This document shows positions 8,945 through 46,568 of a stretch of DNA of 64,000 bases, one piece after another. The position numbers and the translations under genes were made by a program. Every line of letters begins with the position of its first letter. Positions within the stretch are counted from its first letter, which is position 1. A model generated the notes under the pieces. The model saw only the letters and a list, made by a program, of their open reading frames with translations, did no database searches and was not told the DNA's origin. Origin of the DNA: Nitrospirota bacterium (lineage in GTDB: Bacteria > Nitrospirota > UBA9217); NCBI GenBank assembly GCA_963737155.1, contig CAVTRN010000002.1, positions 2,848,001 to 2,912,000 of the forward strand. Direction: 5' to 3'.

Positions 8945-9519
8945 AGAAAAAACGCCGCACTCACCCGGACTAGCGGAGAAGAGCGCATGGCTAAAGCGGG
9001 TGATTTCCTCTCGATAACCACCCCAGTGACCATCCTTCTGAAAACCCGACAAACCATCGTCACCAGCGGCGACGATGACTAGCGAATTCGCCTTAAGCCT
9101 CGGCTCGCTGCTGTACCAATCACGAAAGGCCGAGAAGTCGACTTTGAACTGAGTCACGCCCGTCCCCAGCGCTTCGCGCTCATTGTTGACCTTTGAGCCA
9201 AAGGCCTTGCCGAGCGCAATGAGCTGATCACGAAGACATGAATCGTTGTCGTTGCAGTACTTCCATGTAAGCCGAGCAAGCGCATTATGGAGCTTCTGTG
9301 GGTGCTCCGGATCTTCCAGCGAAATTAGCAGATGGATGTTGAGTGCCATCGTCTTGTCCGTCGGCGGCGCAATCCGAACTCGACATTCGGAATGAGCAGA
9401 TCGACATGGGGCAATTTGCCCAGCGCTTGATACTGTTTGAGTCTTATATAGGTGCTGAATAGGAAGCAATTAGAAATGCCGATAACCCGCACTTCATTCT
9501 GCGCGTACCTGCTAACCAA
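8945..9519 (-). pseudogene. Internal fragment of a TrlF/Ppl-type PHP-domain AAA ATPase (anti-phage)
   Basis: Three joined frames give EVRVIGISN..TYIRLKQYQALGKLPHVDLLIPNVEF-RIAPPTDKTMALNIHLLIS...QLIALGKAF...GVTQFKVDF...NSLVIVAAGDDGLSG, recognised from memory as the TrlF/Ppl N-terminal region. Both ends missing. Confidence 0.7.
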
Positions 9520-9658
9520 TCCTGATAAATTTATAAGTAAACTTTTTAAGTCTCACCCATAGATGTATTTTGTTTAATATCGAGGCAAATATAGCAGCTT
9601 CTCGATGTAGATTTAATCTCAAAAGAAACGTTTTGGATATTTTGACCAGACGGGCTTG

Positions 9659-10669
9659 TTAAAGCTTAGACCAAAAACTCTCATCATTTGCGAGGTCATA
9701 GGCTTGATTAATTGCCGCCGTGATGTCCCCTTTACGAAAATCACGTGTTTTCAAGCTTGGAATTGGATTCGTTGGCGTCAGGGAAATAATGCGACGAGGA
9801 GTATATATATTTGTTAAGTTATCCGAGAGTGCTTTTTGCATTGCGCTAATGATTACTTTCAGTTTTTGGCCTTTATACTTAATAAACGGTTGGACGTTGC
9901 TGAAAATCGTGCTAGGATTGTTTTCAACTAATTTGTATCCGCTGTAAATTGCTCGTCTAATAGCACGGATTTCCAGAAGATCGTTAGCAAAGTCAACCCT
10001 CAATATTATGCGGAGATACCACGGCAGCCGTCCAGTATCGCTATATGTATTGTAGCACAAGCGACTATTTGAAAGAATGAATATTGTATCGCATTTGGCT
10101 TTGATCGCCTCGCCGAGTACGAAAGTTCCTCCATCAGAATGCCATTCTCCGTTAATCATTACCGGTGGCAAGAATCCTTGTAAGCTGATAGCGGCGAGCA
10201 TCAGCTGCTTTATTAATTTCGGATTTTCATGGAAGAGTGGGTCATGATTGGTAAAAATGTGATGTCTTAATCTATTTTCGTTGAAGGTTACAACTTGAAA
10301 TTCAATTGGAGAAGCCACAATCGATTCTGAGTCAAGACTGTCTATCACAAATTTAGATGCGCCATCATTAGAATAAAGATTAGACCCTCTGAAATTTTTA
10401 AATAACCCTGTCCAAGTGCGCCCAAAGATTTTATTTGATCCAAGTTGCTCAATTTTCTTCCATTTCTGTTCCAAGGCATCAACATCCCAATTGGTGCTGA
10501 TAAGATCGCCTCCTGATAACACTCCGACTGAAACGCTTTGGACAAAGAGCGGTTTAATCCCCCTAGTTGCCAGCGCCTTAATAAAGCCAACACTGTATGA
10601 TCCTGTAAAGCCTCCTCCATTAAATATTATTCCGACTTTTCCGAGATTCATAATATCCACTTTCCTCAT
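9659..10669 (-). CDS. Patatin-like phospholipase
   Basis: FNGGGFTG oxyanion loop, QSVSVG nucleophile elbow (SxSxG variant of GxSxG), SDGG catalytic Asp. AT-rich. Start may be the ATG at 10651. Confidence 0.85.
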   Translation of the reverse strand: MRKVDIMNLGKVGIIFNGGGFTGSYSVGFIKALATRGIKPLFVQSVSVGVLSGGDLISTNWDVDALEQKWKKIEQLGSNKIFGRTWTGLFKNFRGSNLYSNDGASKFVIDSLDSESIVASPIEFQVVTFNENRLRHHIFTNHDPLFHENPKLIKQLMLAAISLQGFLPPVMINGEWHSDGGTFVLGEAIKAKCDTIFILSNSRLCYNTYSDTGRLPWYLRIILRVDFANDLLEIRAIRRAIYSGYKLVENNPSTIFSNVQPFIKYKGQKLKVIISAMQKALSDNLTNIYTPRRIISLTPTNPIPSLKTRDFRKGDITAAINQAYDLANDESFWSKL

Positions 10670-10907
10670 GATTTCAGTGTGAAAGATACAAATTCCAAAT
10701 TATTTATTCTACAGTTTAGTATAGAAGGATTCGTTACCTTCAACTCGACAGAAATCGCACCCACTCGTCCAGGAAGAGTGTTTTCCCAAGTGGCTGTTGC
10801 TCGAGCCACTTCCCCTTTGGTGCATCCTCGAATTACACGAATTCTATAAAATGTTCGAACCTGGCCAGCGTGTGTAGGGTGTGCAGGGCAGTAGTTTATT
10901 ATTAGAT

Positions 10908-10950
10908 TAGTAGTGTAGTAGTGTAGTAGTAGTAGTAGTAGTAGTAGTAG
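10908..10950. repeat. TAG/CTA trinucleotide microsatellite
   Basis: (TAGTAGTG)2 followed by (TAG)9 at 10924-10950. Confidence 0.95.
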
Positions 10951-10952
10951 AA

Positions 10953-12590
10953 TCATTCACACTCGCATACGACATTCGCCAATTCCTTCGAAAAAGTCTC
11001 GAAGTTGACCGAATAATCGATGGGGCACTCGATGAGGACCACGGTCTTCAAAGAGAAAGCCTTCTGCAGCAGATCCGATAAATTGTCGTCTGCCTTTACT
11101 CTCATGCCAACGGCCCCGTAGCTCTCAGCATATTTCACGAAGTCCGGATTCTTGTATTCAAGTCCGAAATTCTCGAACCCCTTCGCTTGCTGTTCCCATC
11201 TAATGAATCCGAAGGCATTGTCGTTCAGCACCAAGATGACGAGGGGGAGATTGTAGCGAAGCGCTGTTTCAATCTCCCGCGAGTTCATCATGAACCCTCC
11301 GTCCCCCACCACAGCGAGCACATTTCGGTCCGGCTTTACCAGCTTGGCTGCCATGGCCGAAGGAAGACCGGCCCCCATGGTCGCGAGCGCGTTGTCCACC
11401 AGGAACGTGTTGGGTTTGTACGTCCTGTAGAGCCGTGAGAACCACAGTTTGTAAATCCCGTTGTCAAGCGTCAGAATGTCCTCGTGCGGGAGCGCTTCTC
11501 GCACGTGTCGCACAATCTCCTGGGGCGTCAGGGGAAAGTGATTCTTAAAATCAAGCGACAGCTTCTTGTCCAAAAATTTTCGGATAGCCTTGAAAGTATC
11601 ACCGTTTGTTTTGCAATCGATCAGTTCCCCAATCTGCCGAAGCGAGCACGAGACGTCTCCAACGACCTCGATGACAGGATCATAATAACGGTCAACCTCC
11701 GCCTCGGTAAAATCGATATTGATAATTTTTTTATCCAGATTGGGGTTCCAGATATAGGGCGGATACTCGACGATGTTGTAGCCGATTGTGATGATCACGT
11801 CAGCGTGGTCTATGCCGCAATTCACATAATCGCGCTTGTGGATCCCCGTTGCGAAGAGGCTGTACACCGAGTCATCGGTCACGACTCCCTTTCCCATCTG
11901 CGTATGGACGGCGTGAATGCCTGTCTTCTCGATGAACTGCATCAGTTGACACGTAATCAAGTGACGGTTTGCTCCCGAGGAAAGTATGATAAGCGGATTT
12001 TTTGCTTGATTGATCAGCTCGGCGGCTCGCAGAACAGCTTTGGGATCAGGTGCAGGCCTACGTACGAGACCGCGCTTCTGTACGTCCGCGTCGGTCGTGC
12101 TCCTGGCCACGTCCTCAGGCAGTTCCACATGAACCGCGCCCGGACGTTCCGCCTGAGCCAGTTTGAAGGCGTTTCTCAAGACCGTTGGAATTGCTCCTGA
12201 ATCGACGATAGACACTGATTCTTTGGTAATAGGCCGCATCAGGCTCACGATATTGATGAGCTGGAACCTGGCCTGCCGGTTACCACGAAGTGCTTTTTGA
12301 GCCGAGATAGAAACAAGCGGCGCACCGATGAGCTGCGCATGGGCCACACCGGTAACCAGATTCGTCGCCCCAGGCCCGAGGGTCGAGAAGCATACCCCGG
12401 CTTTTCCTGTAAGCCGTCCATAGGTCGCAGCCATGAACGCCGCAGTCTGCTCGTGGCGAGTAAGGATCAACTTGATTTTTGATGTACGAAGTGATTCCAG
12501 AAAATCGAGGTTTTCCTCACCAGGCAATCCAAAAACATACTCTACCCCTTCCTCCTCCAACTGTCTCAAGAACAAATCGGAAGCCTTCAC
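10953..12590 (-). CDS. ThDP-dependent acetolactate-synthase-like enzyme, probable 2-oxoglutarate decarboxylase (OgdA-like)
   Basis: FGLPGEENL, RHEQ, STLGPGATN, GDGGFMMN...LNDN ThDP motif. Directly downstream of SSADH; no ilvH/ilvC nearby. Confidence 0.85.
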   Translation of the reverse strand: MKASDLFLRQLEEEGVEYVFGLPGEENLDFLESLRTSKIKLILTRHEQTAAFMAATYGRLTGKAGVCFSTLGPGATNLVTGVAHAQLIGAPLVSISAQKALRGNRQARFQLINIVSLMRPITKESVSIVDSGAIPTVLRNAFKLAQAERPGAVHVELPEDVARSTTDADVQKRGLVRRPAPDPKAVLRAAELINQAKNPLIILSSGANRHLITCQLMQFIEKTGIHAVHTQMGKGVVTDDSVYSLFATGIHKRDYVNCGIDHADVIITIGYNIVEYPPYIWNPNLDKKIINIDFTEAEVDRYYDPVIEVVGDVSCSLRQIGELIDCKTNGDTFKAIRKFLDKKLSLDFKNHFPLTPQEIVRHVREALPHEDILTLDNGIYKLWFSRLYRTYKPNTFLVDNALATMGAGLPSAMAAKLVKPDRNVLAVVGDGGFMMNSREIETALRYNLPLVILVLNDNAFGFIRWEQQAKGFENFGLEYKNPDFVKYAESYGAVGMRVKADDNLSDLLQKAFSLKTVVLIECPIDYSVNFETFSKELANVVCECE

Positions 12591-12703
12591 GCTCTATCCC
12601 CTCTCCTCGGAAATATATCACCACGACATTCAGCACTGCATCAATCGTATAGTTTCCCTTTAGCTGTGAACAAACTGAACTCTGAATATTGAAGAAAACT
12701 TAT

Positions 12704-14209
12704 TTATTCCTTAATCACCACGGTCTTGATATTTACGAACTCCTTCAACCCATAATGCGACAGTTCCCTTCCGATTCCGGACTTTTTCACCCCGCCAAAG
12801 GGCAGCCGAGGGTCTGATTTTACCATATCGTTGATGGCGATGGTCCCTGCTTGAAGCTTCGCGGCGACCCTCTCCGCCCGATCCGTGTTTTTGCTCCAGA
12901 TCGCCGCTCCGAGGCCGTATTCGGTATCATTTGCCACCCGGACCGCTTCGTCTTCGTCCCTGACGACGATCACCGGTGCGATAGGGCCGAAGACTTCCTC
13001 GTGCAGGACTTTCATGTTCGGTTTCGAATTATAGATCGCGGCGGGAGCGAAGAAAAGACCTTTCAGTGCCGCCACCGGCATCTGTATAACCTCGGCTCCT
13101 TTCGCCGCAGCATCCCTCAACTGTGCGTTCAGCGAGTTCAGGATGTCCCTCCTCGCAACAGGACCGATGTCAGTCGACTCGTCCATGGGATCGCCTATCT
13201 TTAATTCACGCAGACGGGCGATGAAGTGCTTTTTAAACTCCTCGGCCACACCTTCCATAACGATGAACCTCTTCGCTGCGATACAACTCTGTCCCGTATT
13301 GACTACCCTTGCGTTCGCGGCCATGCGGCCAGCCTTTTCCACATCCGCATCGTCGAGAACAATAAAGGGGTCTGATCCGCCCAGTTCAAGAACGAGTTTT
13401 TTTATCTTTCTTCCCGCGTGTTCGCCCACAACCTCACCGGCTTGGTTGCTGCCCGTCAGAGAGACGCCATCAACTAGGTCCTTGTCGATGAGCCTCAAAG
13501 CCTCAGTCGCATCGATTATCAGAGTTTTGAACACATTGTCCGGGAACCCTGCTTTCCGGAACGCCTCTTCGATGGCAAGGGCAGTCATAGGAACGTTAGA
13601 CGCATGCTTCAGGACTACGACGTTGCCTGCTGCAATTGCCGGGATGCCGAATCGAAAAGCCTGCCAGAACGGAAAGTTCCAGGGCATGATCGCCAAAACA
13701 ACACCCAGGGGCTGAAACATAACATAGCTCTTTTTTGCCTCAGTTTTGATATCTTCCGGAGTCAGAAACCGTGTGGCATTTTCCGCATAGTAATCGCACA
13801 GCCATGCGCATTTCTCCACTTCAGCCAGTGATTCCTTGATCGGCTTGCCCATCTCACTAGTCATGAGCACTGCATTCGCCCGCTTCTCCGATCTCAACAC
13901 TTCGCCCAGCTTTTTGATATATTTCACTCGCTCAGTTACCGGCACATCACGCCAGTTCAAGAAGGCATTTCTCGACATTTGGATTTCCCGGTCCACTTCG
14001 TCGCGCTCCAGGAGATTGAACTCTCGAATCACCTGTTCGGTATATGGGTTGATAGATTGAATCTTCCCTGCTTTTCTTATAAAGGATTTTATCGATTGAA
14101 CTTTCATTTTTTTCATCCCTTTCACGGGGGACGTCACGCTTTTCATTTTGGAGCGGGTCATCCTTTTCTTTACCTGCTTCTTTTTTACGATAGCCTTTTT
14201 TGCTGCCAT
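12704..14209 (-). CDS. NAD(P)-dependent succinate-semialdehyde dehydrogenase (Sad/SsaD type) with Lys-rich N-terminal extension
   Basis: IMPWNFPFWQ, LKHASNVP, LELGGSDP, NTGQSCIAAKRF, EEVFGP, FGGVKKSGIGRELS. Confidence 0.9.
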   Translation of the reverse strand: MAAKKAIVKKKQVKKRMTRSKMKSVTSPVKGMKKMKVQSIKSFIRKAGKIQSINPYTEQVIREFNLLERDEVDREIQMSRNAFLNWRDVPVTERVKYIKKLGEVLRSEKRANAVLMTSEMGKPIKESLAEVEKCAWLCDYYAENATRFLTPEDIKTEAKKSYVMFQPLGVVLAIMPWNFPFWQAFRFGIPAIAAGNVVVLKHASNVPMTALAIEEAFRKAGFPDNVFKTLIIDATEALRLIDKDLVDGVSLTGSNQAGEVVGEHAGRKIKKLVLELGGSDPFIVLDDADVEKAGRMAANARVVNTGQSCIAAKRFIVMEGVAEEFKKHFIARLRELKIGDPMDESTDIGPVARRDILNSLNAQLRDAAAKGAEVIQMPVAALKGLFFAPAAIYNSKPNMKVLHEEVFGPIAPVIVVRDEDEAVRVANDTEYGLGAAIWSKNTDRAERVAAKLQAGTIAINDMVKSDPRLPFGGVKKSGIGRELSHYGLKEFVNIKTVVIKE

Positions 14210-14318
14210 ACGCGTCCTCCCTCCGATTACCGCTAAATATTAAACTGCAGCCATAAACTACACAAAATAAACTTTCGCGGTTTTATTGATTCCGTAATTC
14301 GTATCTCAGCAGCCTCTT

Positions 14319-15536
14319 TCATTTTCTCTGTTTTGCTGGCGTATAAGAGCAACCCGTCCGACCACAGTAATTACCGATGTAATCCGAAGACGGCCGGTAG
14401 AGCGCAGGTTTTTCCTGAGCTTCCCCGAACTTTTCCTCGATAATATGGGCGGTCCAGCCCGCGATCCGTGCTATGGCGAAAACCGCCGTCATAAGATCGT
14501 TCGGGATGCCCATCAAGTGGTAAACCGGGGCGCTATAAAAATCCACATTCGGCTTGATCGTAGTCTTGCCCCGTTTCTCTAATTCGGCCACCGCGGTCTC
14601 TTCGACCTCTGTCAACAGCCGAGTCCATATCTCCTGTCCGAGTTTTTTCCCGAGCCGCCTGCCCATCTCTTTCAGGAATTTAGCCCTCGGATCGGTTGTC
14701 TTGTATATGGCATGCCCTAAACCCATGATCTTCTTGCCGCTCTCAAGTTGACTTTTCACCCACCCGGGCACATCCTTCTCATCCCGCAGTTCCATCAGCA
14801 TCTTCATGACCTGAGCATTGGCGCCGCCGTGCAGACTACCGGAAAGAGCACCCACGCCGGCTGCCACGCCAGCATACATATGCGCCTGTGTCGAAACCAC
14901 TTCGCGGCAGGCGAATGTGGAGGCGTTGAATGAGTGGTCGGCATGGAGCACTAGCGCGGTATCAAAATCCTTCGCTATCTCTGGGTCGGGCTTTATACCG
15001 CTCATCTGCCAGAGAAAATTTCCCGCATGAGAAAGCGTTTCATCGGGAGGAAGTGGCATCAGCTCCTGCCGTATCCGCTGCCACGCGGCGACCACTTCGG
15101 CAACACGCGCGATGAGTTGGATGGCCTTAAATAGATTCGCTTCCCTCGTCTCCCTTGTCAGTTCAGGGTCATCCATCGCTAGCAGCGGAATTGCCGACTG
15201 GAGCACATCCATGGGCTGGGACTGGCGAGGCAATTGTTTCATGCTCTCGATCACGAATCCGGGCAAACGCCGCGCCTCGGCGAGACGCTGTAAAAATTCC
15301 TTCAGCTGCTCCACTGTCGGAAGCGCGTCATAAAGCAGAAGGTAGGCGGTCTCCTCGAATGTCGAATTACTTGCCAGATCCTCGATCCGGTACCCACGAT
15401 AGATAAGAATGCCGTTATCACCGTCCACGTCAGAGATCTTCGTATCCGCTACTTTAACGCCGCGCAGACCGATGTTTTTGGTTTCAATATCTTTGCATTT
15501 TCTGGCAAATTCACCTATTTGAGCTCTAGCTCCCAT
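14319..15536 (-). CDS. gltA: Citrate synthase
   Basis: GLRGV, LHADHSFNASTF, LHGGAN, MGLGHAIYKTTDPRA, PNVDFYSA. Confidence 0.93.
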   Translation of the reverse strand: MGARAQIGEFARKCKDIETKNIGLRGVKVADTKISDVDGDNGILIYRGYRIEDLASNSTFEETAYLLLYDALPTVEQLKEFLQRLAEARRLPGFVIESMKQLPRQSQPMDVLQSAIPLLAMDDPELTRETREANLFKAIQLIARVAEVVAAWQRIRQELMPLPPDETLSHAGNFLWQMSGIKPDPEIAKDFDTALVLHADHSFNASTFACREVVSTQAHMYAGVAAGVGALSGSLHGGANAQVMKMLMELRDEKDVPGWVKSQLESGKKIMGLGHAIYKTTDPRAKFLKEMGRRLGKKLGQEIWTRLLTEVEETAVAELEKRGKTTIKPNVDFYSAPVYHLMGIPNDLMTAVFAIARIAGWTAHIIEEKFGEAQEKPALYRPSSDYIGNYCGRTGCSYTPAKQRK

Positions 15537-15802
15537 AATCAGCCTTTCTTTGATAACCTTGAATCAGAATGGGGAACAACACCTTCTATTAATGTTCCAT
15601 CCTGTCCAGGTCGATCCTGAACCCTAAAAGACTCTTGACAATAGTACACCTACATCATGGAGAAAAACGCAATAAATACTTAATGAAATTTCCCAAAAAA
15701 GACTTATACATCTTCAGCCTCACGAAGCACTCTTTGGAATTTCTGTGACAATTCTCTTTTCCTCTTGAAAAGGATTGGATCCTGAGAAAATAATTTCTCT
15801 CC

Positions 15803-17764
15803 CTACCTTTCTTTATATTTACGCTCCGCTTCCGCCTGAAGCTCCTTTTTCACAAAATTCAGCGTCCCGCCAGCCAGCAGGTACTTGCGCTGCCGCAGGG
15901 ACACGTCCAGAAGCGTCATAATAGCCCTGCTGTCGACCTCTACAGGGATTTCCTGATCACCGCGCTTTATCCGCGCCCTAATCTCCGGGAAAGTAACCTT
16001 CGTGCCCTTGATCAGAAGGTCATAGTCCTTTGGATCTTTGAACGTAAGCGGCAAGATGCCAAAGTTACAAAGGTTCGATTTGTGGATTCGGGCGAAACTC
16101 TTAACGATCTTAGCGCGCACGCCAAGATAGCGCGGTGCAAGTGCAGCGTGCTCGCGGCTCGATCCCTGTCCGTAATTCTCGCCACCTACCACGACCACGG
16201 TGCCGCGCGCCCTGCATTCTTTTGCAAAGTCAGGCTCGATCTGGGAAAAAACGAAATCGCTTAGCGCTTCAATATTCGAGCGGAAGGGCAAGACCCTGTT
16301 GCCGGCTGGCATGATCCCGTCAGTAGAAATGTTATCCCCCACCCTCAACACAACTTCAGCTTGAAACGTGTCGGGAAGTGGTTTAAGTTCCGGTAGCGGC
16401 TTAATATTAGGGCCACGGAGGATTTCGGTTTTCGTAAGCCCCTTCGCCGGGGAAATGACCGATTTTTCATCGATGATATATCGGACCGGGTCTTCAACCC
16501 GTGGGTAGGGCATCTCCTTTGACAAATCGCGGGGATCGGTGATAACGCCCCTCAATGCTGCTGCTGTCGCGGTCTCAGGTGAGCAAAGGTATATCTTGTC
16601 ATCCTTTGTCCCACTTCTTCCTGGAAAGTTCCGGGGGAATGTACGAAGACTGACTTCACCGGTTCCAGGAGCTTGACCCATCCCGATGCAGCCCTGGCAG
16701 CCCGGCTCATGCATGCGCGCGCCCGAGGTCAGGAATGCTAGAAGTCCGCCAGCCTTATACACGTTTTCTAACACCTGACGACTTCCGGGGTTCACATGGA
16801 ACGACGTGTCAGGATACACGTGCCGATTTTCCAAAATTTTGGCGGCTATCATCAGATCGCGGAATGATGAATTCACACTGCTACCCACGATGGCTTGGTC
16901 CACTTTGATTCCGGCGACATCGCGCACAGGAACCACATTGCCGGGTGACGAAGGCTTGGCGATAAGCGGTTCAAGTTTCGACAAATCGATTTCGGTGTAT
17001 TCGTCATATTCGGCGCCCTCATCCGTGGAAAATGGAACCCATGCATCCCCCCGGCCCTGGGCAATCAGATATTCACGGGTGCGTTCATCGGACGGGAAAA
17101 TAGAGGTTGTCGCACCAGTCTCGGTTCCCATGTTGCCAATTGTCTCCCTATCCGTCGCAGACAGGGTCCTAACTCCCGGACCGCAATACTCGATAATTTT
17201 CCCCACACAGCCCTTCACGTCGTAGCGTCTGAGCATTTCAAGAATCACATCCTTTGCACTCACCCAGTCCGGGAGCGTCCCCGTGAGATTTACGCCGAGC
17301 ACCTTAGGACATGGGAAATAATAGGGATAGCCGGCCATGGCGAGGGCAACATCGAGTCCTCCCGCCCCAATACCCAGCATGGAAACGCCGGCGGCGCCGG
17401 GAGTATGGCTGTCGGCTCCCAGCATCGTCTTTCCCGGGATGCCAAAGCGTTCCATGTGCACCTGATGCGACACCCCATTCCCCGGCTGGCTAAAGTGTAT
17501 GCCGTATCGTGCGGCAGCTGTCTGGAGGAACTTATGGTCGTCGGCGTTTTTATTGTCTGTCTGGAGTAGGTTGTGATCGACGTACTGAGCGCAAAGCTCG
17601 GCCTTCACCCCATTGATGCCCAAAGACTCAAACTCGAGGATTGCCAGTGTTCCTGTGGCGTCCTGCAGCAAGGTGTGATCGATTCTGATACCAATCTCCT
17701 TGCCCGGTTCCAGTTCTCCCTCGATAAGATGAGCTTCTAAAATTTTATAAGTCAGATTCTTCAT
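15803..17764 (-). CDS. Aconitate hydratase (653-aa archaeal/firmicute type)
   Basis: QDATGT, GADSHT, GCQGCIGMGQ, RNFPGRSG, STDGIMPAG, NYGQGSSREHAA. Confidence 0.93.
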   Translation of the reverse strand: MKNLTYKILEAHLIEGELEPGKEIGIRIDHTLLQDATGTLAILEFESLGINGVKAELCAQYVDHNLLQTDNKNADDHKFLQTAAARYGIHFSQPGNGVSHQVHMERFGIPGKTMLGADSHTPGAAGVSMLGIGAGGLDVALAMAGYPYYFPCPKVLGVNLTGTLPDWVSAKDVILEMLRRYDVKGCVGKIIEYCGPGVRTLSATDRETIGNMGTETGATTSIFPSDERTREYLIAQGRGDAWVPFSTDEGAEYDEYTEIDLSKLEPLIAKPSSPGNVVPVRDVAGIKVDQAIVGSSVNSSFRDLMIAAKILENRHVYPDTSFHVNPGSRQVLENVYKAGGLLAFLTSGARMHEPGCQGCIGMGQAPGTGEVSLRTFPRNFPGRSGTKDDKIYLCSPETATAAALRGVITDPRDLSKEMPYPRVEDPVRYIIDEKSVISPAKGLTKTEILRGPNIKPLPELKPLPDTFQAEVVLRVGDNISTDGIMPAGNRVLPFRSNIEALSDFVFSQIEPDFAKECRARGTVVVVGGENYGQGSSREHAALAPRYLGVRAKIVKSFARIHKSNLCNFGILPLTFKDPKDYDLLIKGTKVTFPEIRARIKRGDQEIPVEVDSRAIMTLLDVSLRQRKYLLAGGTLNFVKKELQAEAERKYKER

Positions 17765-18857
17765 TATCCTTAGTATTTACCCCTCCATGTAGCCATTTCT
17801 GCCTTTGAAAGTCTTTATAATCAGGATAAAAACTCTCTTTTTTTCTGTATATAGATTTTTATCTTTTCCTTTATAATTTTACCACAGTTTGAGTTCATTC
17901 GTATACGCTGCTTCCGTATTTATGATCACAAAAATAAAACTGCTGCTCTAAATTCTTAATTGATCGCAAACATTGACAGAGAATGGCAAAAGGAAGTACT
18001 TTCCCCAGGATTTTAGCTGTCGGAGACTTGGCAAACGCGACTTTTTTTGTAAATATCGCAAATCTTGAAGTCTGAACTATTTTCCTTATTCAGAACCTTC
18101 TTCTGCATTTATTCCAGAACCGATCCCAGCGTGAACTGGAAAAATCCTAAGCCCTGATCCTTTTTTGCAAAAGCGGTGCGGAACCGTTCAGCTATGATCT
18201 CGCGATACCGTTGTGTAGAGGGTCTTGCAAGGACCTGGCGATGACGCGCTAGCGATGCGGTACATACTCGCTTCGGAGAGCGGCATCTTCGTCTGGTGCA
18301 ACTCATCGGAGGGTACAAGGGTTGTCCGCAACGCAAACGTCGATGGCCGTACCAAAACTTCTGGCATGGTGATTGCAAACTCCGCTGACATCAGCATGAA
18401 TGCCGGGACCACAACATGTACGTTAAATATTGATTGAGTGGTTCTGTTCCTTTTGTCGACATATCCGCACAGGGAACAGCCACGGGATGAATAGGCAGGT
18501 TTGTCGCGGCAATTTTAATGCTAAGCGGTGACCGTAATGAACCAAGTTTATTATTGACAAGGATTTTCCAAACATCAATATGAGCCGGTTAGTCCTTCAT
18601 AAAGGATCGGGCCTTCTGAAATCTAAATGATCTACAATGAGTTCCGCGGGCTTGTGGATAAGAACAGCATGGTTTATTAAGCGTTCGATCTGGTTTTTCT
18701 TAATCTGTTGAAAGTTTTAGAGTAGCATCAGTAATAATGTCCCGTCACCGGCAATGCCGGTGCATCATAGCCCAGCAATTCTAAAATATGCAACTGCTTA
18801 TCGAGAAAGAAGTTACAGCAGCATCATTCTTTCTTCACGATCTTCAATCAAACGCCA

Positions 18858-19718
18858 CTATAAACCGCTCTGATGAAGCAGGAAAACAATTGCTGACGCG
18901 CAGACACAATATATCCCAAACAGATACCATCTACCTCTTTCCAACCAATTGGAAAGCCACTTAAGAGCTAAAATTCCAGAAGCAAAGCTTAGTACCATAC
19001 CTAACAGGCTGGGGTAAAAAAGGCCCAACATATTTGTCACATTAGCTGAAAATGCCTGGTGTGCTTTCAGTAATCTTAAGACTTCTCGGACAATTATGGG
19101 TGGTGTTAGAACAACGGCAAGGGCGAAACTAAACTCCTCCGCTCTTTTTTTGGCTACCCCCAAAAGAAGTCCGGTGGATATAGTTGCGCCGGAACGCGAA
19201 AATCCTCGAAACGGTAAACAGATACCCTGTACAGCCCCGATCCAGCAAGATTCCTTTAAGCCCAAAGCAACTTTATCCCCGCGACGAAACCTTTCCAACC
19301 CTGTGAGAATGATTAAAATACCTACTGCTGCAAGGGCTGCTGTGATTAAAACCATGTTGCCAAAGACCAGTTCGATCTCCGCATGTGGGACATCCCTTAA
19401 TATAAATTTCTCAATAAAATATTTTAGCAATAAACCTATAGTACCCGTTAAAAATGAAGCTGCTGTGATAAGCTTGACTGAATCCCAAATGACTTTTCGC
19501 GAAGAAAAAAAGGACGCTTTCCACGATTTCCAAAAAAAGAAGATAACCGCAAACATGGTACCCGTGTGAAGCATCACCAGAAGAAGCGTCATTTCCGGGC
19601 TCGTTGGGTCGAGTCCCATCAATTTTTCCGCTACGATGACATGAGCGGAACTCGAGATTGGCAGCAATTCAGCAGCCCCCTGGATTATAGCGAGAACGAG
19701 AATCTTGAATAGGGTCAT
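18858..19718 (-). CDS. uppP: Undecaprenyl-diphosphate phosphatase
   Basis: QGAAELLPISSSAH and FRGFSRSGATI BacA motifs; multiple TM helices. Confidence 0.92.
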   Translation of the reverse strand: MTLFKILVLAIIQGAAELLPISSSAHVIVAEKLMGLDPTSPEMTLLLVMLHTGTMFAVIFFFWKSWKASFFSSRKVIWDSVKLITAASFLTGTIGLLLKYFIEKFILRDVPHAEIELVFGNMVLITAALAAVGILIILTGLERFRRGDKVALGLKESCWIGAVQGICLPFRGFSRSGATISTGLLLGVAKKRAEEFSFALAVVLTPPIIVREVLRLLKAHQAFSANVTNMLGLFYPSLLGMVLSFASGILALKWLSNWLERGRWYLFGIYCVCASAIVFLLHQSGL

Positions 19719-20281: not shown

Positions 20282-20998
20282 CTATTTTCCGTGCTTTTTG
20301 CCGCTCTTTTCATTTTCTTTTACACATTCCCTGAAGTTTATAAGCAGTGACCTGTCCCAATCCGTCAATTCTGAGAATTCCACCCCTACGTCGTAATATG
20401 CACGCACTGTATCCTGAGTCATGCGACACGAAACAATTTTTCCCATAAAACTTACAGAATCACAAGCGTTAACTGACAACTCCATGAGAACCATGCTGTC
20501 TATCTTCAATTGATGATCAGTTTGGATAATTACACCACTCTGGCTAATATCTTTTACGCCGAACTGTGCGGGTAGCTTCAAAACTTCTTCGTTAGGCGTT
20601 GTGATGGAAAACTGAATGTCACGATAGAACCATTCAGGTCGCTCTGGTACTGGTGTTTTCTTGTTGTTTTCAATTGAATCGAGCAAATCCTTAACTTTAT
20701 CTGCTGATTCATCTTTGAACAATATACCTGCCGAGTAAATAGTGACTTTTTCTCCATCAGTTCTTTCTTCAATTCCGCTTAATTCGGAACGAACCACTAT
20801 CCCCTGTACATTAATATACTTTCTCTCGTACCCGAGCATCATCAAACACTCTTTCCCTATATTAAGCTTCCTGTCTGCTTTGAGCGCCACTCCACCCAAA
20901 CTAATATCAATAATTTCTACTTTACCGATTGAGCTTATCTTGCTGCTTAGATCGATTAAATCCAACCTGAATCTCTGGTGTCTTCTCATCTTCAGCAT
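20282..20998 (-). CDS. Tandem PilZ-domain protein
   Basis: Domain 1: RRHQRF and DISLGG. Domain 2: DISQSG and VGVEF, with a degenerate RxxxR. Confidence 0.88.
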   Translation of the reverse strand: MLKMRRHQRFRLDLIDLSSKISSIGKVEIIDISLGGVALKADRKLNIGKECLMMLGYERKYINVQGIVVRSELSGIEERTDGEKVTIYSAGILFKDESADKVKDLLDSIENNKKTPVPERPEWFYRDIQFSITTPNEEVLKLPAQFGVKDISQSGVIIQTDHQLKIDSMVLMELSVNACDSVSFMGKIVSCRMTQDTVRAYYDVGVEFSELTDWDRSLLINFRECVKENEKSGKKHGK

Positions 20999-21383: not shown

Positions 21384-22498
21384 TTAATCGTCTCATAATA
21401 GTATTAACACTAATTATGCCGCATACTTTGTTGTTTCGTTATTAAAGTAAGCGCGCACACGATCAGGAGACTTTTGGATAAACCTCAAATGACTGACTAC
21501 TGCACCATGTAATTGTTCCGGTGAACTAATTGCCTGACGACCAACTGCATTGTTCTTCAGGTCATTCCAGACTCTCTCATCGGGATTCAGCTCTGGAGAA
21601 TACGGCGGTAAAAAGAACAGACGAAACTTTTCCTTAATGGTTTCAATATAGTTAGAAACCTTGCGAGACTTGTGTGACGGATGACCATCAACGATGAGAA
21701 ATATCATCCGTTTGCTGCCTTGAATAAGCCGCTTTATGAATTCAATAAATTGCTGCGACGCTACGCGACCTTTGACTACCATGAACCTAAATTCGCCTTG
21801 TGCACTAACAGCCGAAATCATATTCAATCCGAAGCGCGCTCCTGTGCTGCTCACAATCGGGGTCTCACCCTTCATGGCCCAAGTGGTGCCCGCATGATGA
21901 TCAGAGCGAACGCCAGCTTCATCTCCAAAGAAGATTTGAGCCTTCATGCGACGCGCCATGCTTCGTATCCGAGGATACTCCTTCTCCAGCCACTCCTGAA
22001 CCGCTGCCGGCTTTTGCTGATAGGCACGCCAAACAGGACGCTGTGGAGTCAATCCCAACTGTCCCAGCAAACGACAAACGGATGCTTTGCTCAATCTCAT
22101 ACCAAATCGCTTATATATTACCTGCCCAATGATCTTCGCTGTCCACAGGGCATAGGTAAACTTCAACTGAAGCGGATTTTTCGTGGTCACAGTACGATAA
22201 ACCCATTCTATAGCCTTAGCATCCATTTTTGGCGGGCGACCGCCTCGTTTGTTGGCATCAAGAGCACCCCAGCCCCCGTTTCGATATCGTGCCAACCAGC
22301 CATAGATGGTGACGCGATTTATACCCAGGGCTTTGGCCACCAGTTCGGGGCTTTGTCCTTCCTGGACACTATTTACCGCACGCTTTCTGAGCTCAGTCAG
22401 AGTTTTATGGTCAAGATTTCTCGCATCTGCTTTTTTCTTCATGAAAATAACTATACCACAGATGCAAGATTATGTCAATACTATTATGAGACGGTTAA
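21384..22498 (-). mobile_element. IS630-family insertion sequence, intact
   Basis: 26-bp terminal inverted repeats TTAATCGTCTCATAATAGTATTAACA / TGTCAATACTATTATGAGACGGTTAA (2 mismatches), flanked by a TA duplication at 21382-21383 and 22499-22500. Confidence 0.95.
21414..22442 (-). CDS. IS630 transposase
   Basis: HTH domains; DDE motifs FGDEAG, IVDGHPSH, LPPYSPELNPDE. Confidence 0.95.
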   Translation of the reverse strand: MKKKADARNLDHKTLTELRKRAVNSVQEGQSPELVAKALGINRVTIYGWLARYRNGGWGALDANKRGGRPPKMDAKAIEWVYRTVTTKNPLQLKFTYALWTAKIIGQVIYKRFGMRLSKASVCRLLGQLGLTPQRPVWRAYQQKPAAVQEWLEKEYPRIRSMARRMKAQIFFGDEAGVRSDHHAGTTWAMKGETPIVSSTGARFGLNMISAVSAQGEFRFMVVKGRVASQQFIEFIKRLIQGSKRMIFLIVDGHPSHKSRKVSNYIETIKEKFRLFFLPPYSPELNPDERVWNDLKNNAVGRQAISSPEQLHGAVVSHLRFIQKSPDRVRAYFNNETTKYAA

Positions 22499-24351: not shown

Positions 24352-25623
24352 TCATAGATTCCCTCTCAGTCTCTCAGCCTGGAGAATCCGCTTAACCGCT
24401 AGTTCATAGGCTGCCTTGCGCATCCTGCACCGCTTTTCACGACAGTGGCCGCTGACATCGTTGAATGCAGTGATCATGGTCTGTTTTAGTTTTTCGAGAA
24501 CTTTATCTTCCGGCCAAGCTTCGCCGCTGAGGTTCTGGCTCCACTCGAAGAAGCTTACCACCACGCCGCCGGCATTGGCAAGGATATCCGGGATAAGCAG
24601 GACGTCCCTGCTGAAAAAGATATCGTCCGCCGTCGCCGTGGTCGGCGCATTCGCGAGTTCAAGGATGATCTCCGCTTTCACATCTTTTGCGTTTCCTGCA
24701 TTAAGCTGGTTTGAAAGCGCTGCTGGAACCAGCACGTTGCAGTCTGAGGTCAAAATTTCGGCGTTGGAGATATCCCGGCCGCCAGGGAATTTCGTGACGC
24801 TGCCCATTTTATTCTTGTGCTGCATTACCGCAGGGATGTCCAGTCCATCCTGGTTCAGGATGCCACCGTTCACATCGCTGACTGCAATGACGCAGTACCC
24901 TCGTTCGAAGAGCAGGCGTGCAGTGTTTTCGCCGACGTTGCCGAATCCCTGGACAGCCACGCGAAGTTTCCCGGGCTCCATGCCACGGTCCTTTATTGCC
25001 TGTTCAAGTACATGAATCCCTCCCAAAGCCGTTGAATACCGCCGTGCTCTGATGCCACCCAGCTCCGCCGGCTTTCCCGTGACGACTGCAGGAACATGTT
25101 CCCGCTTGATCCGCTCGTACTCATCGAGGATCCACGCCATGATCTGTTCGTCGGTATAGACGTCCGGAGCTGGAATATCCTTGAACGGCCCAATGTAGTC
25201 GGCAATGGCCCGGATATATCCGCGAGTCACTCGTTCGAGATCGCGGTGGGACAGGTCAAGAGGATCGACAGCCACGCCGCCCTTGGCGCCGCCAAAGGGG
25301 ATGTTCACCACCGCGCATTTGAGCGCCATGAGAAATGCAAGCTCGCGTGCATGCTCCTCATCCATCTCAGGATGAAAACGGATGCCGCCTTTAGAGGGCC
25401 CCCGCGCGTCGTTGTACTGGACACGATAACCGGTGAACATCTGCGATTTTCCCATCGTCAGTTTGACGGGAAAGGTCACGGTAAAGGACCTGCGAGGCAT
25501 GGACAGTAGAGCGAGTTCGTCCTTCGTGAGCCCGAGGTCGGCATAGATTGTCTGCAGTTCGGTCATGCCGAGACTGCGTAGATCTTTTTCGTCAAGATGA
25601 AGCCGTTCATGGTTGCGGTTCAT
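24352..25623 (-). CDS. gdhA: Glu/Leu/Phe/Val dehydrogenase (glutamate dehydrogenase)
   Basis: GPSKGGIRFHP, PFGGAKGG, DIPAPDV, QGFGNVG, PDILANAGGV. Confidence 0.9.
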   Translation of the reverse strand: MNRNHERLHLDEKDLRSLGMTELQTIYADLGLTKDELALLSMPRRSFTVTFPVKLTMGKSQMFTGYRVQYNDARGPSKGGIRFHPEMDEEHARELAFLMALKCAVVNIPFGGAKGGVAVDPLDLSHRDLERVTRGYIRAIADYIGPFKDIPAPDVYTDEQIMAWILDEYERIKREHVPAVVTGKPAELGGIRARRYSTALGGIHVLEQAIKDRGMEPGKLRVAVQGFGNVGENTARLLFERGYCVIAVSDVNGGILNQDGLDIPAVMQHKNKMGSVTKFPGGRDISNAEILTSDCNVLVPAALSNQLNAGNAKDVKAEIILELANAPTTATADDIFFSRDVLLIPDILANAGGVVVSFFEWSQNLSGEAWPEDKVLEKLKQTMITAFNDVSGHCREKRCRMRKAAYELAVKRILQAERLRGNL

Positions 25624-25725
25624 GGAAACCCCCAAGAAAGTTCAAAGTTCGCCGTTCAAAGAAGGCAGGCTTAGCCCTAAGATGCTTATCTTTTTGAATA
25701 TAAACTTCGAACCGTTATTTTTATT

Positions 25726-27147
25726 TTACTTTACCAGCCCCGTCTTCCTCGCCGTTTCAGCGACAGCGGCGGCAACATGAACGGGTACTTTCCGATCGAA
25801 TGGACTAGGAATGATATAGTCCTCATGTAGTTCCTCGGCTTCGATGCTATGAGCAATGGCCTTTGCCGCAGCAAGCTTCACTGCCTCGTTCACGCCGCGC
25901 GCCCGTACATCGAGCAGCCCTCGGAAGATGCCGGGGAAGCCGAGCATATTGTTAATCTGATTGGGATAGTCCGACCTTCCCGTGGCCATGATCCGGACGA
26001 GCGGTAGAGCTTCTTCAGGCGCGATCTCTGGGTCAGGGTTTGCGAGTGCAAATACGACGGGGTTCTTCACCATTCTGCGGATGTCGTCCGCGGTAATCAC
26101 GTTTGGAGCTGAAAGGCCGATGAACACGTCCGCTCCCTTCATAGCGTCGGATATACTCCCCTTTACCCTGCGGGGATTGGTAATCTTTGCGAGCTCACGC
26201 TTTGCATGGTCCATCCACCCTTTCCTTCCGCTATACAGCGCTCCGGTGCGGTCACAAACAATAATATCGCGAACGCCCGATGCAAGCATAATTTTCGTTA
26301 CCGCAGTCCCAGCTGCACCGGCACCGACCACGACGATCTTGAATTTTTTCAGGTCCCGCTTAAGGAGCCGCGAAACATTTATAAGCGCTGCAAGGGCGAC
26401 GACCGCAGTCCCGTGCTGGTCATCATGGAACACAGGGATGTCGAGCATCTTCCGAAGCCTCGTTTCCACCTCGAAGCAGTGGGGCGCGGCGAAATCTTCC
26501 AGGTTGATGCCGCCGAACGTCGGTGCGAGGTTCTTCACCGTAGTTACGATCTCGTCAATGTCTTTGGTTGCAAGGACGATCGGGAATGCATCGATGCCCG
26601 CGAACTCCTTGAATATCATAGCTTTGCCTTCCATGACTGGAAGTGCCGCTTCGGGCCCTATGTCGCCCAAGCCAAGCACGGCGGTGCCGTCTGAAACTAC
26701 TGCTACAGAATTGCCTTTGATCGTGTATCTGTAAGCGTGTTCCTTATTTTGATAGATATCCATGCAGACCCGCGCCACGCCAGGTGTGTACACTTTGGAG
26801 AGGTCGTTTCGGTCGCGCATTGGCAGTTTGTTTTTCACCTCAATTTTTCCGCCTTCGTGGGCCAAAAAAGTCCGGTCCATGATTCGAAGCACCTTAACGC
26901 CCGCGATCGCCCTGATTCCCTTCACAATCGCTTTTTCGTGATCCTCGTTCTGTGCGTTTGCCGTCACGTCTCGGATGATCTTTCCCTTTTCCACGCGTAC
27001 GATGTCCACGGACCCCAAGTCCCCCCCCGCGTTCGAAATGGCCATAGCGATCTTCGCAAACATCCCGATCCTATTTTCAATCTCAACCCTTATGGTGATG
27101 CTGTAGCTGGGACTGCATCTCAAACCCGAAACACAGATATCTTTCAT
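25726..27147 (-). CDS. NAD(P)-dependent malic enzyme with N-terminal ACT domain
   Basis: N-terminal ACT domain; YTPGVA, DGTAVLGLG, FHDDQHGT, GAGAAG, ANPDPEI, NQINN. Confidence 0.92.
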   Translation of the reverse strand: MKDICVSGLRCSPSYSITIRVEIENRIGMFAKIAMAISNAGGDLGSVDIVRVEKGKIIRDVTANAQNEDHEKAIVKGIRAIAGVKVLRIMDRTFLAHEGGKIEVKNKLPMRDRNDLSKVYTPGVARVCMDIYQNKEHAYRYTIKGNSVAVVSDGTAVLGLGDIGPEAALPVMEGKAMIFKEFAGIDAFPIVLATKDIDEIVTTVKNLAPTFGGINLEDFAAPHCFEVETRLRKMLDIPVFHDDQHGTAVVALAALINVSRLLKRDLKKFKIVVVGAGAAGTAVTKIMLASGVRDIIVCDRTGALYSGRKGWMDHAKRELAKITNPRRVKGSISDAMKGADVFIGLSAPNVITADDIRRMVKNPVVFALANPDPEIAPEEALPLVRIMATGRSDYPNQINNMLGFPGIFRGLLDVRARGVNEAVKLAAAKAIAHSIEAEELHEDYIIPSPFDRKVPVHVAAAVAETARKTGLVK

Positions 27148-29068: not shown

Positions 29069-29749
29069 ATGAAGGATTCGTTCATGTTATTACCCATATC
29101 CACCGTCGGCAGAAAAATCATGGTGGCAATCACGGGCCAAATCCTCGTCATTTTCATATTATTTCACATATCAGGAAACTCCTCAATCTTTTTCCATAAA
29201 CTCAACGTCTATGTCGCCGCCCTCTATACCCTGCCGGTCTTTATTTGGGGTGGGCGTATTGTCCTTATCCTGTCCTTCATCCTCCATATGTGGTATGGTA
29301 TAATCCTGAAACTCGAAAACAGGAGTGCGAAACCTCAGTCCTACATTGTAACGAACTACCGCCAAGCAACACTTGCAGGCCGGTATCAGATTTGGACAGG
29401 CGTTATCATCGCGGCCTTCCTTATCTATCATCTTCTTCAATTCACCTTCCAGGTTACGAATCTCCAGAACGCGGCTGATACCCACCTGGATGCCCTCGGC
29501 AGACCGGATATTTTAATGATGGTCGTGCGCAATTTCCAGCAGATCGGCATTTCAGGAACATATATAATTTCCCTAGCCGCCTTGGGGCTGCACTTACTCC
29601 ACGGCATCCAGAGTTCTATCCAGACTTGGGGGCTGACAAATGACAGGACACTGCCGGTGATCGAGAAAACCGGAACGATCGCCTCAATCATTTTGTTTTT
29701 CTGGTATATATCCATACCGGTGACAATTTTTCTTGGAATTTTGAAGTAG
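29069..29749 (+). CDS. sdhC: Succinate dehydrogenase/fumarate reductase cytochrome b subunit
   Basis: STVGRKIMVAITG; heme-ligand histidines in TM helices; precedes sdhAB. Confidence 0.9.
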   Translation: MKDSFMLLPISTVGRKIMVAITGQILVIFILFHISGNSSIFFHKLNVYVAALYTLPVFIWGGRIVLILSFILHMWYGIILKLENRSAKPQSYIVTNYRQATLAGRYQIWTGVIIAAFLIYHLLQFTFQVTNLQNAADTHLDALGRPDILMMVVRNFQQIGISGTYIISLAALGLHLLHGIQSSIQTWGLTNDRTLPVIEKTGTIASIILFFWYISIPVTIFLGILK

Positions 29750-29863
29750 CAACTCTTTTCATCATTTCGGACCTAATCCGGAATCCAGTTGTATGAAACT
29801 GAGCCTCCGGATTTCCGCCATCGCGGGACAGACGATCATAACGTTTCAATGGCAAGGAGCACT

Positions 29864-46388: not shown

Positions 46389-46568
46389 TGCCAAATCTCC
46401 TTGGTCCCCTCTCCGCCTTCACCACGTTCCGCATAAGCACTCAATCACCTGATCCTGGTGAGGACGATGAACCTGTATCCTGTCTCATTGCACTAAGCGG
46501 CTAGATGTTTTCTCCCCGGCGAAGTGATCACATAATCAGCCGGGAAAATTAAAGAGACAACGATTGAT

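Follow-up and report, generated by a model that had tools for sequence, protein, structure and literature searches.

A predicted 2-oxoglutarate bypass encoded beside aconitase and citrate synthase genes in a dsrA-bearing Nitrospirota bacterium

What does a thiamine diphosphate (ThDP)-dependent enzyme do when automatic annotation would name it acetolactate synthase, and yet its gene closes a block that begins with aconitase and citrate synthase? The question is raised by a locus in a 64-kb stretch of the genome of a Nitrospirota bacterium (C2:2848001-2912000; hereafter the window, to which coordinates refer unless they are preceded by C1 or C2, the two contigs of the genome). The gene immediately upstream of the ThDP enzyme encodes a succinic semialdehyde dehydrogenase (SSADH). 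Reportedly, the OgdA/SsaD bypass, which joins a decarboxylase to such a dehydrogenase, was described in 2011 for Synechococcus PCC 7002. A preliminary description of the window proposed that a shunt of this kind converts 2-oxoglutarate to succinic semialdehyde and then to succinate here. The analysis presented below suggests that the ThDP enzyme and its SsaD partner probably do constitute a 2-oxoglutarate bypass, situated inside an acn-gltA-ssaD-ogdA-like block. This reading is supported by the type of SSADH, the clade of the ThDP enzyme, the pairing of the two genes and the content of the genome, and 2-oxoglutarate is the predicted substrate.

Four co-oriented open reading frames (ORFs) on the minus strand fill positions 10953-17764. 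The preliminary description had listed four such genes, and the outer limits of the ORFs are exactly 10953 and 17764. The first encodes an aconitate hydratase of 653 aa (15803-17764), which scores 942.4 bits on NF005558 (cut-off 612) and has the Pfam Aconitase and Aconitase_C domains; a second aconitase, 53% identical to this one, is encoded at C1:453688-455628. Next is a citrate synthase of 405 aa (14319-15536; 420.9 bits on PF00285 and 411.6 on TIGR01800, slightly below the cut-off of 421.3). Could this enzyme be a methylcitrate synthase? A prpB-prpC pair is encoded separately (C2:3056222-3058284), and its prpC encodes a 2-methylcitrate synthase (655 bits against a cut-off of 550), so this candidate was set aside and the window enzyme is likely to be the one that serves the tricarboxylic acid (TCA) cycle. 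The block is completed by an SsaD-type, NADP-preferring SSADH of 501 aa as called (12704-14209) and an OgdA-like, putative ThDP-dependent 2-oxoacid decarboxylase of 545 aa with a GTG start (10953-12590). From acn to the ThDP gene the intergenic gaps are 266, 109 and 113 bp, and we infer that the four genes are co-transcribed.

The host is a dsrA-bearing Nitrospirota bacterium, neither a cyanobacterium nor a phototroph. Its genome of 4.84 Mb, in two contigs, is rated 100% complete. The nearest relatives of the ThDP protein (70-90% identity) come from Nitrospirota/Nitrospirae metagenome-assembled genomes (MAGs), which agrees with the earlier placement of the organism outside the cyanobacteria. 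dsrA is recognized at 566 bits (cut-off 392.85). The match, at C2:1107884-1109035, includes one TAG, which is either the end stop of the gene or an internal stop.

One clue to the pathway is the dehydrogenase. Among solved structures it matches best, at 431-435 bits, 3vz1, 4it9 (with 4ita and 4itb), 3vz2 and 3vz3, and the accessible portions of two papers assign 3VZ3 and 4ITA to the SSADH (A2771) of Synechococcus sp. PCC 7002 (PMC7510979; PMC4213762). In this enzyme, SySSADH, the catalytic residues are Cys262, Glu228 and Asn131, the carboxylate of succinic semialdehyde (SSA) is bound by Arg139, Trp135 and Ser419, and NADP preference depends on Ser157 and Lys154, as far as the same portion of the text describes them (PMC7510979). 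When these positions are read off the PDB-match alignment, with the numbering anchored on Glu228 and Cys262, all eight are identical in the window enzyme. Cys309, Glu275 and Asn178 match the catalytic residues, Arg186, Trp182 and Ser465 the carboxylate binders, and Ser204 and Lys201 the residues for NADP preference. The enzyme is also 47-50% identical to an orthologue in each of five cyanobacteria (Chlorogloeopsis, Trichodesmium, Scytonema, Calothrix and Microcoleus, found through 16S-primer loci). It is the sole SSADH-type aldehyde dehydrogenase (ALDH) of the genome; the others are 26-27% identical to it. The earlier assignment as an SSADH is thereby sharpened to the SsaD type.

The best NCBIfam match of the dehydrogenase is the NADP-SSADH family NF006915, at 523 bits against a cut-off of 730. 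A cyanobacterial SsaD orthologue (679.2) and a haloarchaeal one (588.9) miss the same cut-off, which therefore fails to separate this subgroup, and the low score was set aside as an argument against SSADH identity. Homology to SSADHs begins at residue 50 and is preceded by a Lys/Arg-rich extension (the first ~48 codons, 14065-14209). Three related loci (L001, L002 and L004) have an open basic extension much like it, with a KGV.xMK-like motif. It is absent in Methanosarcina, in a Ca. Sulfobium MAG and in L264/L266, where the protein starts MKI.SINPYTEE. The extension is either a real tail or the result of a start called too far upstream.

The ThDP enzyme is a member of a family that carries a different name. 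It has the Pfam domains TPP_enzyme_N, _M and _C and scores 787.7 bits on NF006187 (PRK08322, 'acetolactate synthase large subunit'; cut-off 509), so automatic annotation would indeed produce the name that had been foreseen. The same family takes in the Microcoleus orthologue of OgdA (870.7 bits) and proteins from a Leisingera plasmid (865.6), Methanosarcina (800.7), a Ca. Sulfobium MAG (721.9) and a haloarchaeal plasmid (616.5). The window enzyme misses both cut-offs for AlsS (450.4 against 510 on NF006378; 420 against 551.1 on TIGR02418) and that for IlvB (374.2 against 538.35 on TIGR00118). Each of the five cyanobacteria has one protein that is 42-44% identical to it; their IlvB-like proteins are 30-33% identical, and four of the five passed E ≤ 1e-50.

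Phylogeny gives the same answer. Two quick IQ-TREE searches, of 62 and 67 rows, were made with the Shimodaira-Hasegawa-like approximate likelihood ratio test (SH-aLRT) as the only support and no bootstraps. The outgroups were three alsS products encoded next to budA, two ilvB products encoded next to ilvN or ilvD, the host's own IlvB and cyanobacterial IlvB. Cyanobacterial OgdA was represented by orthologues and not by the PCC 7002 and Microcystis sequences themselves. The NF006187 members all fall together in a single clade, with SH-aLRT support of 96 and 97, and AlsS and IlvB (100 each) stand outside it, AlsS being the nearest outgroup in both trees. The ThDP enzyme thus falls where the preliminary description would have it, in the clade that contains OgdA and outside those of acetolactate synthases. 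Inside the clade it groups with proteins of Nitrospirota, Methanosarcina and Woesearchaeota. The sister of this group is a large Proteobacteria/Bacteroidota clade (~50% identity), and the cyanobacterial proteins branch outside both.

The N-terminal sequence FGLPGEENL, to which attention had been drawn, is present at residues 20-28. At this position PGEE[NT] is found in 32/32 rows of the PRK08322 clade, whereas the three AlsS rows have PGAKI and the four IlvB rows have PGG. Hence the motif marks the family as a whole and not OgdA alone. The closest solved chain to the ThDP enzyme, 13bb_A (392 bits), is called acetolactate synthase. It has Met in place of a Lys that is found throughout the family (Lys381 of the window enzyme) and was set aside as a characterised close relative.

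Is the pairing of the two genes conserved? In three of the five cyanobacteria (Chlorogloeopsis, Scytonema and Microcoleus) the ThDP gene is immediately preceded, on its own strand, by ssaD, just as it is in the window across the 113-bp gap. ssaD lies 2.2 kb upstream in Trichodesmium and is unlinked in Calothrix. In 13 of 80 loci that encode relatives of the window enzyme, a gene for an SSADH-like protein at least 44% identical lies upstream on the same strand. In 11 of the 13 the best SSADH match is within 500 bp of the ThDP gene; L003 and L007 have an ALDH match broken into two pieces, the nearer of which abuts that gene. The 13 include two loci from Methanosarcina, two from Methanosarcinales and two from Woesearchaeota. 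Six of them (L001-L004, L007 and L008, from related Nitrospirota) keep the full order acn-gltA-ssaD-ThDP, so the link to citrate synthase and aconitase on which the preliminary description leaned is not peculiar to the window. Some of these full blocks also have glutamate dehydrogenase (gdh) and malic enzyme genes upstream. Elsewhere among the 80 loci, the SSADH-like gene is downstream in three and no ALDH is found in the flank in 25. The block of one Methanosarcina locus (L006) continues with genes for a flavoprotein and a fumarase homologue. On the haloarchaeal plasmid, a gene annotated 'NAD-dependent succinate-semialdehyde dehydrogenase' is followed, with a 4-bp overlap, by one annotated 'acetolactate synthase large subunit'. 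In all, ssaD-linked members of NF006187 were found in dsr-bearing Nitrospirota, Methanosarcina, Woesearchaeota, a haloarchaeon, Methylomirabilia and candidate-phyla bacteria.

The host encodes a second member of NF006187 (C1:850476-852152; minus strand in L103:8476-10152; 717 bits). It adjoins genes for a CPA2 cation antiporter, crcB and fur, with no ALDH gene nearby. In 6 of the 79 loci that encode relatives of this paralogue, an SSADH-like gene stands immediately upstream, and five of these six loci are from Nitrospirota, namely L257, L258 (Ca. Sulfobium mesophilum), L263, L264 and L266, the last with the order ssaD-ThDP-acn-gltA. Their ssaD products are 70-76% identical to that of the window. 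In other words, different Nitrospirota place one or the other of two isozymes, about 44% identical, at the same site next to the same ssaD. The most economical interpretation is that the two would do the same job.

What else in the genome could act on 2-oxoglutarate? No match was found in the host genome for the E1 component of 2-oxoglutarate dehydrogenase (OGDH), sucC, glutamate decarboxylase (GAD) or budA (PF03306), and the best score for sucD is 55.8 bits (cut-off 353). A GABA shunt was considered as a source of succinic semialdehyde and set aside, given the lack of a GAD match and a best GabT score in the genome of 240.6 bits (cut-off 506.65). An acetoin pathway was set aside as well, there being no budA in the genome. 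NADP-isocitrate dehydrogenase is encoded at C1:707620-708870 (649 bits) and malate dehydrogenase at C2:2746313-2747236 (455.8 bits against 351.85), ~100 kb from the block. The sole ilvN match of the genome stands beside ilvB at C2:1275661-1277963, ~1.58 Mb from the window, and the ThDP gene has, as had been noted, no regulatory subunit near it. A PF00180 (Iso_dh) match close to ilvB-ilvN (C2:1285349-1286389) was taken as a candidate leuB. Pyruvate dehydrogenase E1, porCDAB and iorA are present. A search for 2-oxoglutarate:ferredoxin oxidoreductase (OGOR), in which matches to PF01855 and PF02775 were classified by NCBIfam and no family-specific korA/korB models were used, recognized none in the host genome.

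The relatives of the host offer a further comparison. A set of 41 genomes was used, comprising the host, 24 others of its family and 16 from other families of the phylum; they are kin and not independent samples. The window-type enzyme occurs in 23 of the 24 same-family genomes, the one without it being 85% complete, and in none of the 16 from other families, three of which have a 46-47% match. sucC passes its cut-off in 3 of the 24 and in 10 of the 16. OGDH E1 passes in 0 of the 41. This distribution of the enzyme and sucC is the pattern expected if the bypass replaces succinyl-CoA synthetase in the family.

The proposed pathway can now be put together. The block would account for the opening half of a citric acid cycle that runs oxidatively, with the 2-oxoglutarate step carried out by a two-enzyme bypass. 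Acetyl-CoA and oxaloacetate would be converted to citrate, isocitrate and then 2-oxoglutarate, with icd supplied from elsewhere in the genome. The ThDP enzyme (10953-12590) would then decarboxylate 2-oxoglutarate non-oxidatively to succinic semialdehyde and CO2, and SsaD (12704-14209) would oxidize the semialdehyde to succinate, probably with reduction of NADP+ to NADPH. The two together would stand in for OGDH and succinyl-CoA synthetase, both missing from the genome. Succinate dehydrogenase, fumarase and either malate dehydrogenase or malic enzyme would complete the path. The bypass step would yield no ATP or GTP, and since the decarboxylation is irreversible this segment should run oxidatively only. 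It may serve a full cycle or a branch that supplies succinate.

Several observations weigh against this reading. Strict orthology with cyanobacterial OgdA is not borne out, the window enzyme being 43.6% identical and in a separate subclade. Thus the part of the earlier OgdA identification that stands is family and clade, and the part that does not is orthology, with differences in the proposed substrate contacts as well. These contacts come from the Microcystis enzyme MaKGD, which is strictly specific for 2-oxoglutarate according to the available sections of PMC10418658, where they were derived by docking on an AlphaFold model. The Microcoleus orthologue matches 14/14 of the MaKGD residues listed in those sections (with an offset of 3). 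The window enzyme keeps 7/14 and the paralogue encoded in its own genome 12/14. That paralogue is also 50.4% identical to cyanobacterial OgdA, closer than it is to the window enzyme (42.9%). The catalytic Glu and the GDG...ND diphosphate/Mg motif are retained, with Glu47, Asp430 and Asp457 equivalent to Glu50, Asp435 and Asp462 of MaKGD. However, of the six proposed contacts (Gln254, Lys386, Lys471, Val382, Ala408 and Leu467) only Lys386 and Ala408 are kept. Gln254 is replaced by His251, Val382 by Asn, Leu467 by Phe and Lys471 by Glu466; the stretch DVGAHK reads DNGIYK, and Tyr465 is Phe. The change at Lys471 affects the residue proposed to form a salt bridge to the distal carboxylate of 2-oxoglutarate. 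Glu is found there in the window and in L001, L002, L003 and L008, whereas L004, L005 and Methanosarcina have Lys in the same gene context. Two residues before it, the window lineage has Arg or Lys where cyanobacteria have Glu. One position speaks for the reading: Lys381, the equivalent of Lys386, is Lys in 32/32 family rows, where AlsS has His or Tyr and IlvB has Gln. Because the contacts come from docking on a predicted model, they make a weak test. The mutants described in those sections of PMC10418658 do not include Lys471, Lys386 or Gln254. The active-site differences count genuinely, though weakly, against strict identity of function.

Do these differences mean that the ThDP enzyme acts on something else? 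Perhaps its substrate is another 2-oxoacid, such as 2-oxoadipate, oxaloacetate or some other carboxylated compound, and the neighbouring dehydrogenase oxidizes the resulting aldehyde; the two genes would then form a general oxoacid-to-acid module whose place amid TCA genes is fortuitous. Beyond the seven altered positions with their charge reversal, and an own paralogue that resembles cyanobacterial OgdA more, this idea draws on the sister clade. Although that clade is the closest to the window's (~50% identity), it pairs with an unrelated ALDH, so members of the family need not share one substrate. In 39 of the 80 related loci a distant ALDH, 24-31% identical to the window SSADH, is directly adjacent (L059 is borderline at 44%), and this partner passes no NCBIfam cut-off. 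But the partner SSADH of the window keeps all the residues that bind SSA (R139, W135 and S419 in SySSADH numbering), and in six related loci the pair is embedded between the citrate synthase and aconitase genes and the gdh, sdh and fum genes. Genomes with Lys and with Glu at the Lys471 position have the same operon, and the searches for GAD and GabT recognized no further source of succinic semialdehyde. A different substrate is therefore quite unlikely. Much more improbable still is that the enzyme is an acetolactate synthase or other carboligase with an incidental dehydrogenase neighbourhood. ThDP decarboxylases often have carboligase side activities, and both the family and the solved chain 13bb_A bear the name acetolactate synthase. 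Against this, the enzyme misses both AlsS cut-offs and the IlvB cut-off and branches outside IlvB and the budA-linked AlsS proteins; the genome lacks budA and has its ilvB-ilvN elsewhere; 13bb_A carries Met at the position of Lys381, which is shared by the entire family; and NF006187 holds orthologues of the characterised cyanobacterial decarboxylase.

If a 2-oxoglutarate bypass is accepted, a question is whether the cycle closes. The bypass might be real and yet serve as a one-way branch that provides succinate or reducing power or removes excess 2-oxoglutarate; succinate oxidation might be impaired or run in the fumarate reductase direction, or a second route might exist. The gene for the succinate dehydrogenase/fumarate reductase flavoprotein (sdhA, 29789-31778, plus strand) is in two frames, 29789-30508 and 30255-31778, which match positions 3-172 and 173-641 of NF005749. 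The split is due to a shift of one base near 30366-30371, where the sequence reads as though one base had been added outside any homopolymer. dsrA is present, so the organism may live anaerobically. Orphan oxidoreductase genes exist too. An alpha subunit gene of VorB type stands alone between recN and cysK/nifS (C2:2767621-2768712), and a very divergent beta plus gamma pair stands alone after purB-purF, 560 kb away (C2:2205085-2206409). A CoA-transferase family protein of 630 aa (C1:218652-220544; L337:3652-5544) combines an acetyl-CoA hydrolase/transferase domain with a Pat-like acetyltransferase domain. These subunits, with the weakly matching CoA-transferase protein, could in principle take 2-oxoglutarate to succinate. 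Counting against the main reading itself, three same-family genomes hold both the ThDP gene and sucC. A scan of 9000-19000 for promoters and terminators found 12 promoter-like sites against 10.8 expected and eight terminator-like sites against 9.4; such counts are no more than chance, and the scan is uninformative on operon structure. Against an unclosed cycle, 12 of 14 same-genus genomes encode sdhA in a single open frame of 638-680 aa, in the same neighbourhood and often about as far from the ThDP gene; of the other two, one contains an internal TAA and the other is partial. The frameshift in the host may therefore be an assembly error or a strain-specific lesion. Every other enzyme of the cycle is encoded. 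The orphan subunits fall far below the OGOR cut-offs (240.5 bits against 579 for alpha and 98 against 364 for beta, the latter reaching at most 107 bits on models with cut-offs of 364-438), and the CoA-transferase family protein falls far below the cut-offs for succinate CoA-transferases. A bypass without a closed cycle is thus unlikely, though it deserves to be kept in mind. As for the genome check that had been called for, it revealed icd and a separate ilvBN and neither sucA nor sucCD, in line with a bypass, while an OGOR assembled from orphan subunits is the part left standing on the other side.

How does the predicted bypass compare with known systems? The ogdA-ssaD operon of PCC 7002 (A2770/A2771) is described in the accessible part of PMC5160925. 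The cyanobacterial bypass and that of the window would use the same two protein families, with the decarboxylases in one NCBIfam family, the SSADHs 47-50% identical, ssaD followed by the ThDP gene in three of five cyanobacteria, and a host that likewise lacks OGDH. They differ in that the window decarboxylase is 42-44% identical, belongs to a sister clade and is changed at 7 of the 14 listed positions, and in that the window pair is joined to aconitase and citrate synthase genes in an operon-like block within a larger TCA island. The host also lacks sucCD, whereas a sucCD operon is reported for PCC 7002 in the same part of that source (PMC5160925). AlsS/BudB enzymes share the three-domain ThDP fold, the absence of a regulatory subunit and 31-34% identity with the window enzyme; however, their genes adjoin budA, and they have PGAKI in place of PGEEN and His or Tyr in place of Lys381. 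IlvB/IlvN belongs to the same superfamily (about 30% identity), but the window enzyme has no ilvN partner and is below the TIGR00118 cut-off. The GABA shunt (GAD, GabT and GabD) also ends with an SSADH that makes succinate, but the host has no GAD match and no GabT over the cut-off. Mycobacterial Kgd is of the SucA-like family. It and Euglena KGD (EgKGD) have the same net reaction as that proposed here, 2-oxoglutarate to succinic semialdehyde, yet these SucA-type decarboxylases are from an unrelated ThDP branch, and no TIGR00239-type protein is encoded in the host genome. EgKGD, like MaKGD, is described as strictly specific for 2-oxoglutarate in the sections available (PMC10418658).

Is any of this new? 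The shunt was presented beforehand as one outside cyanobacteria. The host is indeed a Nitrospirota bacterium, but the novelty is weakened by a report, as early as 2011, of homologues in methanogens and anaerobic bacteria, as the accessible portion of PMC12214013 indicates. Among the matches listed in the literature searches, none ties this decarboxylase to Nitrospirota, Thermodesulfovibrio, Sulfobium or Methanosarcina. The sole Nitrospira paper among them names the enzyme just as a marker for lactose use, and PMC13147460, in the part available, concerns an oxoglutarate carboxylase in Aquificota and not this decarboxylase. The finding is the extension of a known pathway to a new lineage and not a new kind of system. 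Since knowledge of the pathway dates from 2011, when its occurrence in anaerobes was already anticipated, the finding extends the picture rather than changes it. As far as the literature searches show, three elements are new: the joining of ssaD and its ThDP partner to acn and gltA within a TCA island, the exchange of one isozyme for another next to ssaD, and the breadth of a family that is automatically annotated as acetolactate synthase.

A broader reading joins these elements, and we are evenly divided over it. Perhaps all NF006187 members are aldehyde-releasing 2-oxoacid decarboxylases and the OgdA/SsaD bypass, not confined to cyanobacteria, is a common means of carrying out the 2-oxoglutarate step in anaerobes; the pocket would have been rebuilt in the window lineage (DNGIYK, His251 and Glu466), and the bypass would accompany the loss of succinyl-CoA synthetase in the host family. 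If the predicted bypass of the window holds, metabolic models of this Nitrospirota family should contain an oxidative cycle that avoids succinyl-CoA and is closed or at least continuous, and not a 'broken' TCA cycle. For annotation, a family found in many phyla is named acetolactate synthase, while its characterised members are 2-oxoglutarate decarboxylases. For enzymology, the isozyme swap and the Lys/Glu variation at a proposed contact are natural material on substrate specificity.

The genes for gdh, malic enzyme, fumC and sdhCAB lie 7-20 kb from the block within the window. Glutamate dehydrogenase (24352-25635, minus strand), at the 2-oxoglutarate node, has GdhA_Arch as its best NCBIfam match (458.8 bits, under the cut-off), and gdh is also upstream of the block in L002, L003, L007 and L008. 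The malic enzyme-like protein (25726-27147, minus strand) scores 367 bits on NF009501, again under the cut-off, and is also found in L003. On the plus strand follow a class II fumarate hydratase or aspartase family protein (27610-29010; 574.5 bits on TIGR00979, below 664.75, and 534.3 on NF008909 against 510), the succinate dehydrogenase/fumarate reductase cytochrome b subunit (29069-29749; TIGR02046, 148.9 bits against 96) and, after sdhA, the iron-sulfur subunit (31873-32628; NF005746, 413.7 bits against 243). A GTP-dependent phosphoenolpyruvate carboxykinase (44601-46394, minus strand; NF003253, 950.1 bits against 504) is at the oxaloacetate node.

Some further observations can be recorded. 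Three ORFs come after the ThDP gene, encoding a 96-aa product without a family, a patatin-like protein and a 187-aa product without a family. Within 9659-10956 the 96-aa ORF shares 4 bp with the end of the ThDP gene, stop included, and is itself overlapped by the patatin-like phospholipase gene. At the thresholds used, neither of these two was found next to the ThDP gene in any of the 80 related loci. In the sister clade (Proteobacteria, Bacteroidota and others; 39 of the 80 loci, among L013, L018 and L022-L080, and also L248) the ThDP gene is almost always followed by that for the ALDH without a family, which looks like a conserved decarboxylase-dehydrogenase pair. In Leisingera its neighbours are an FMN-glutamate-synthase-family gene and a RidA gene. 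The CoA-transferase family gene of the host is divergent to a gene for an ADP-forming acyl-CoA synthetase. An ISL3 transposase gene comes after prpC (C2:3058423-3059652), and an IS630-family transposase gene (21414-22442; 235 bits against 100) lies between the four-gene block and the gdh, malic enzyme, fum and sdh genes. Finally, 20282-20998 encodes a PilZ-domain protein that weakly matches the myxobacterial TIGR02266 domain, and MglB- and RomY-like genes are present elsewhere in the genome.

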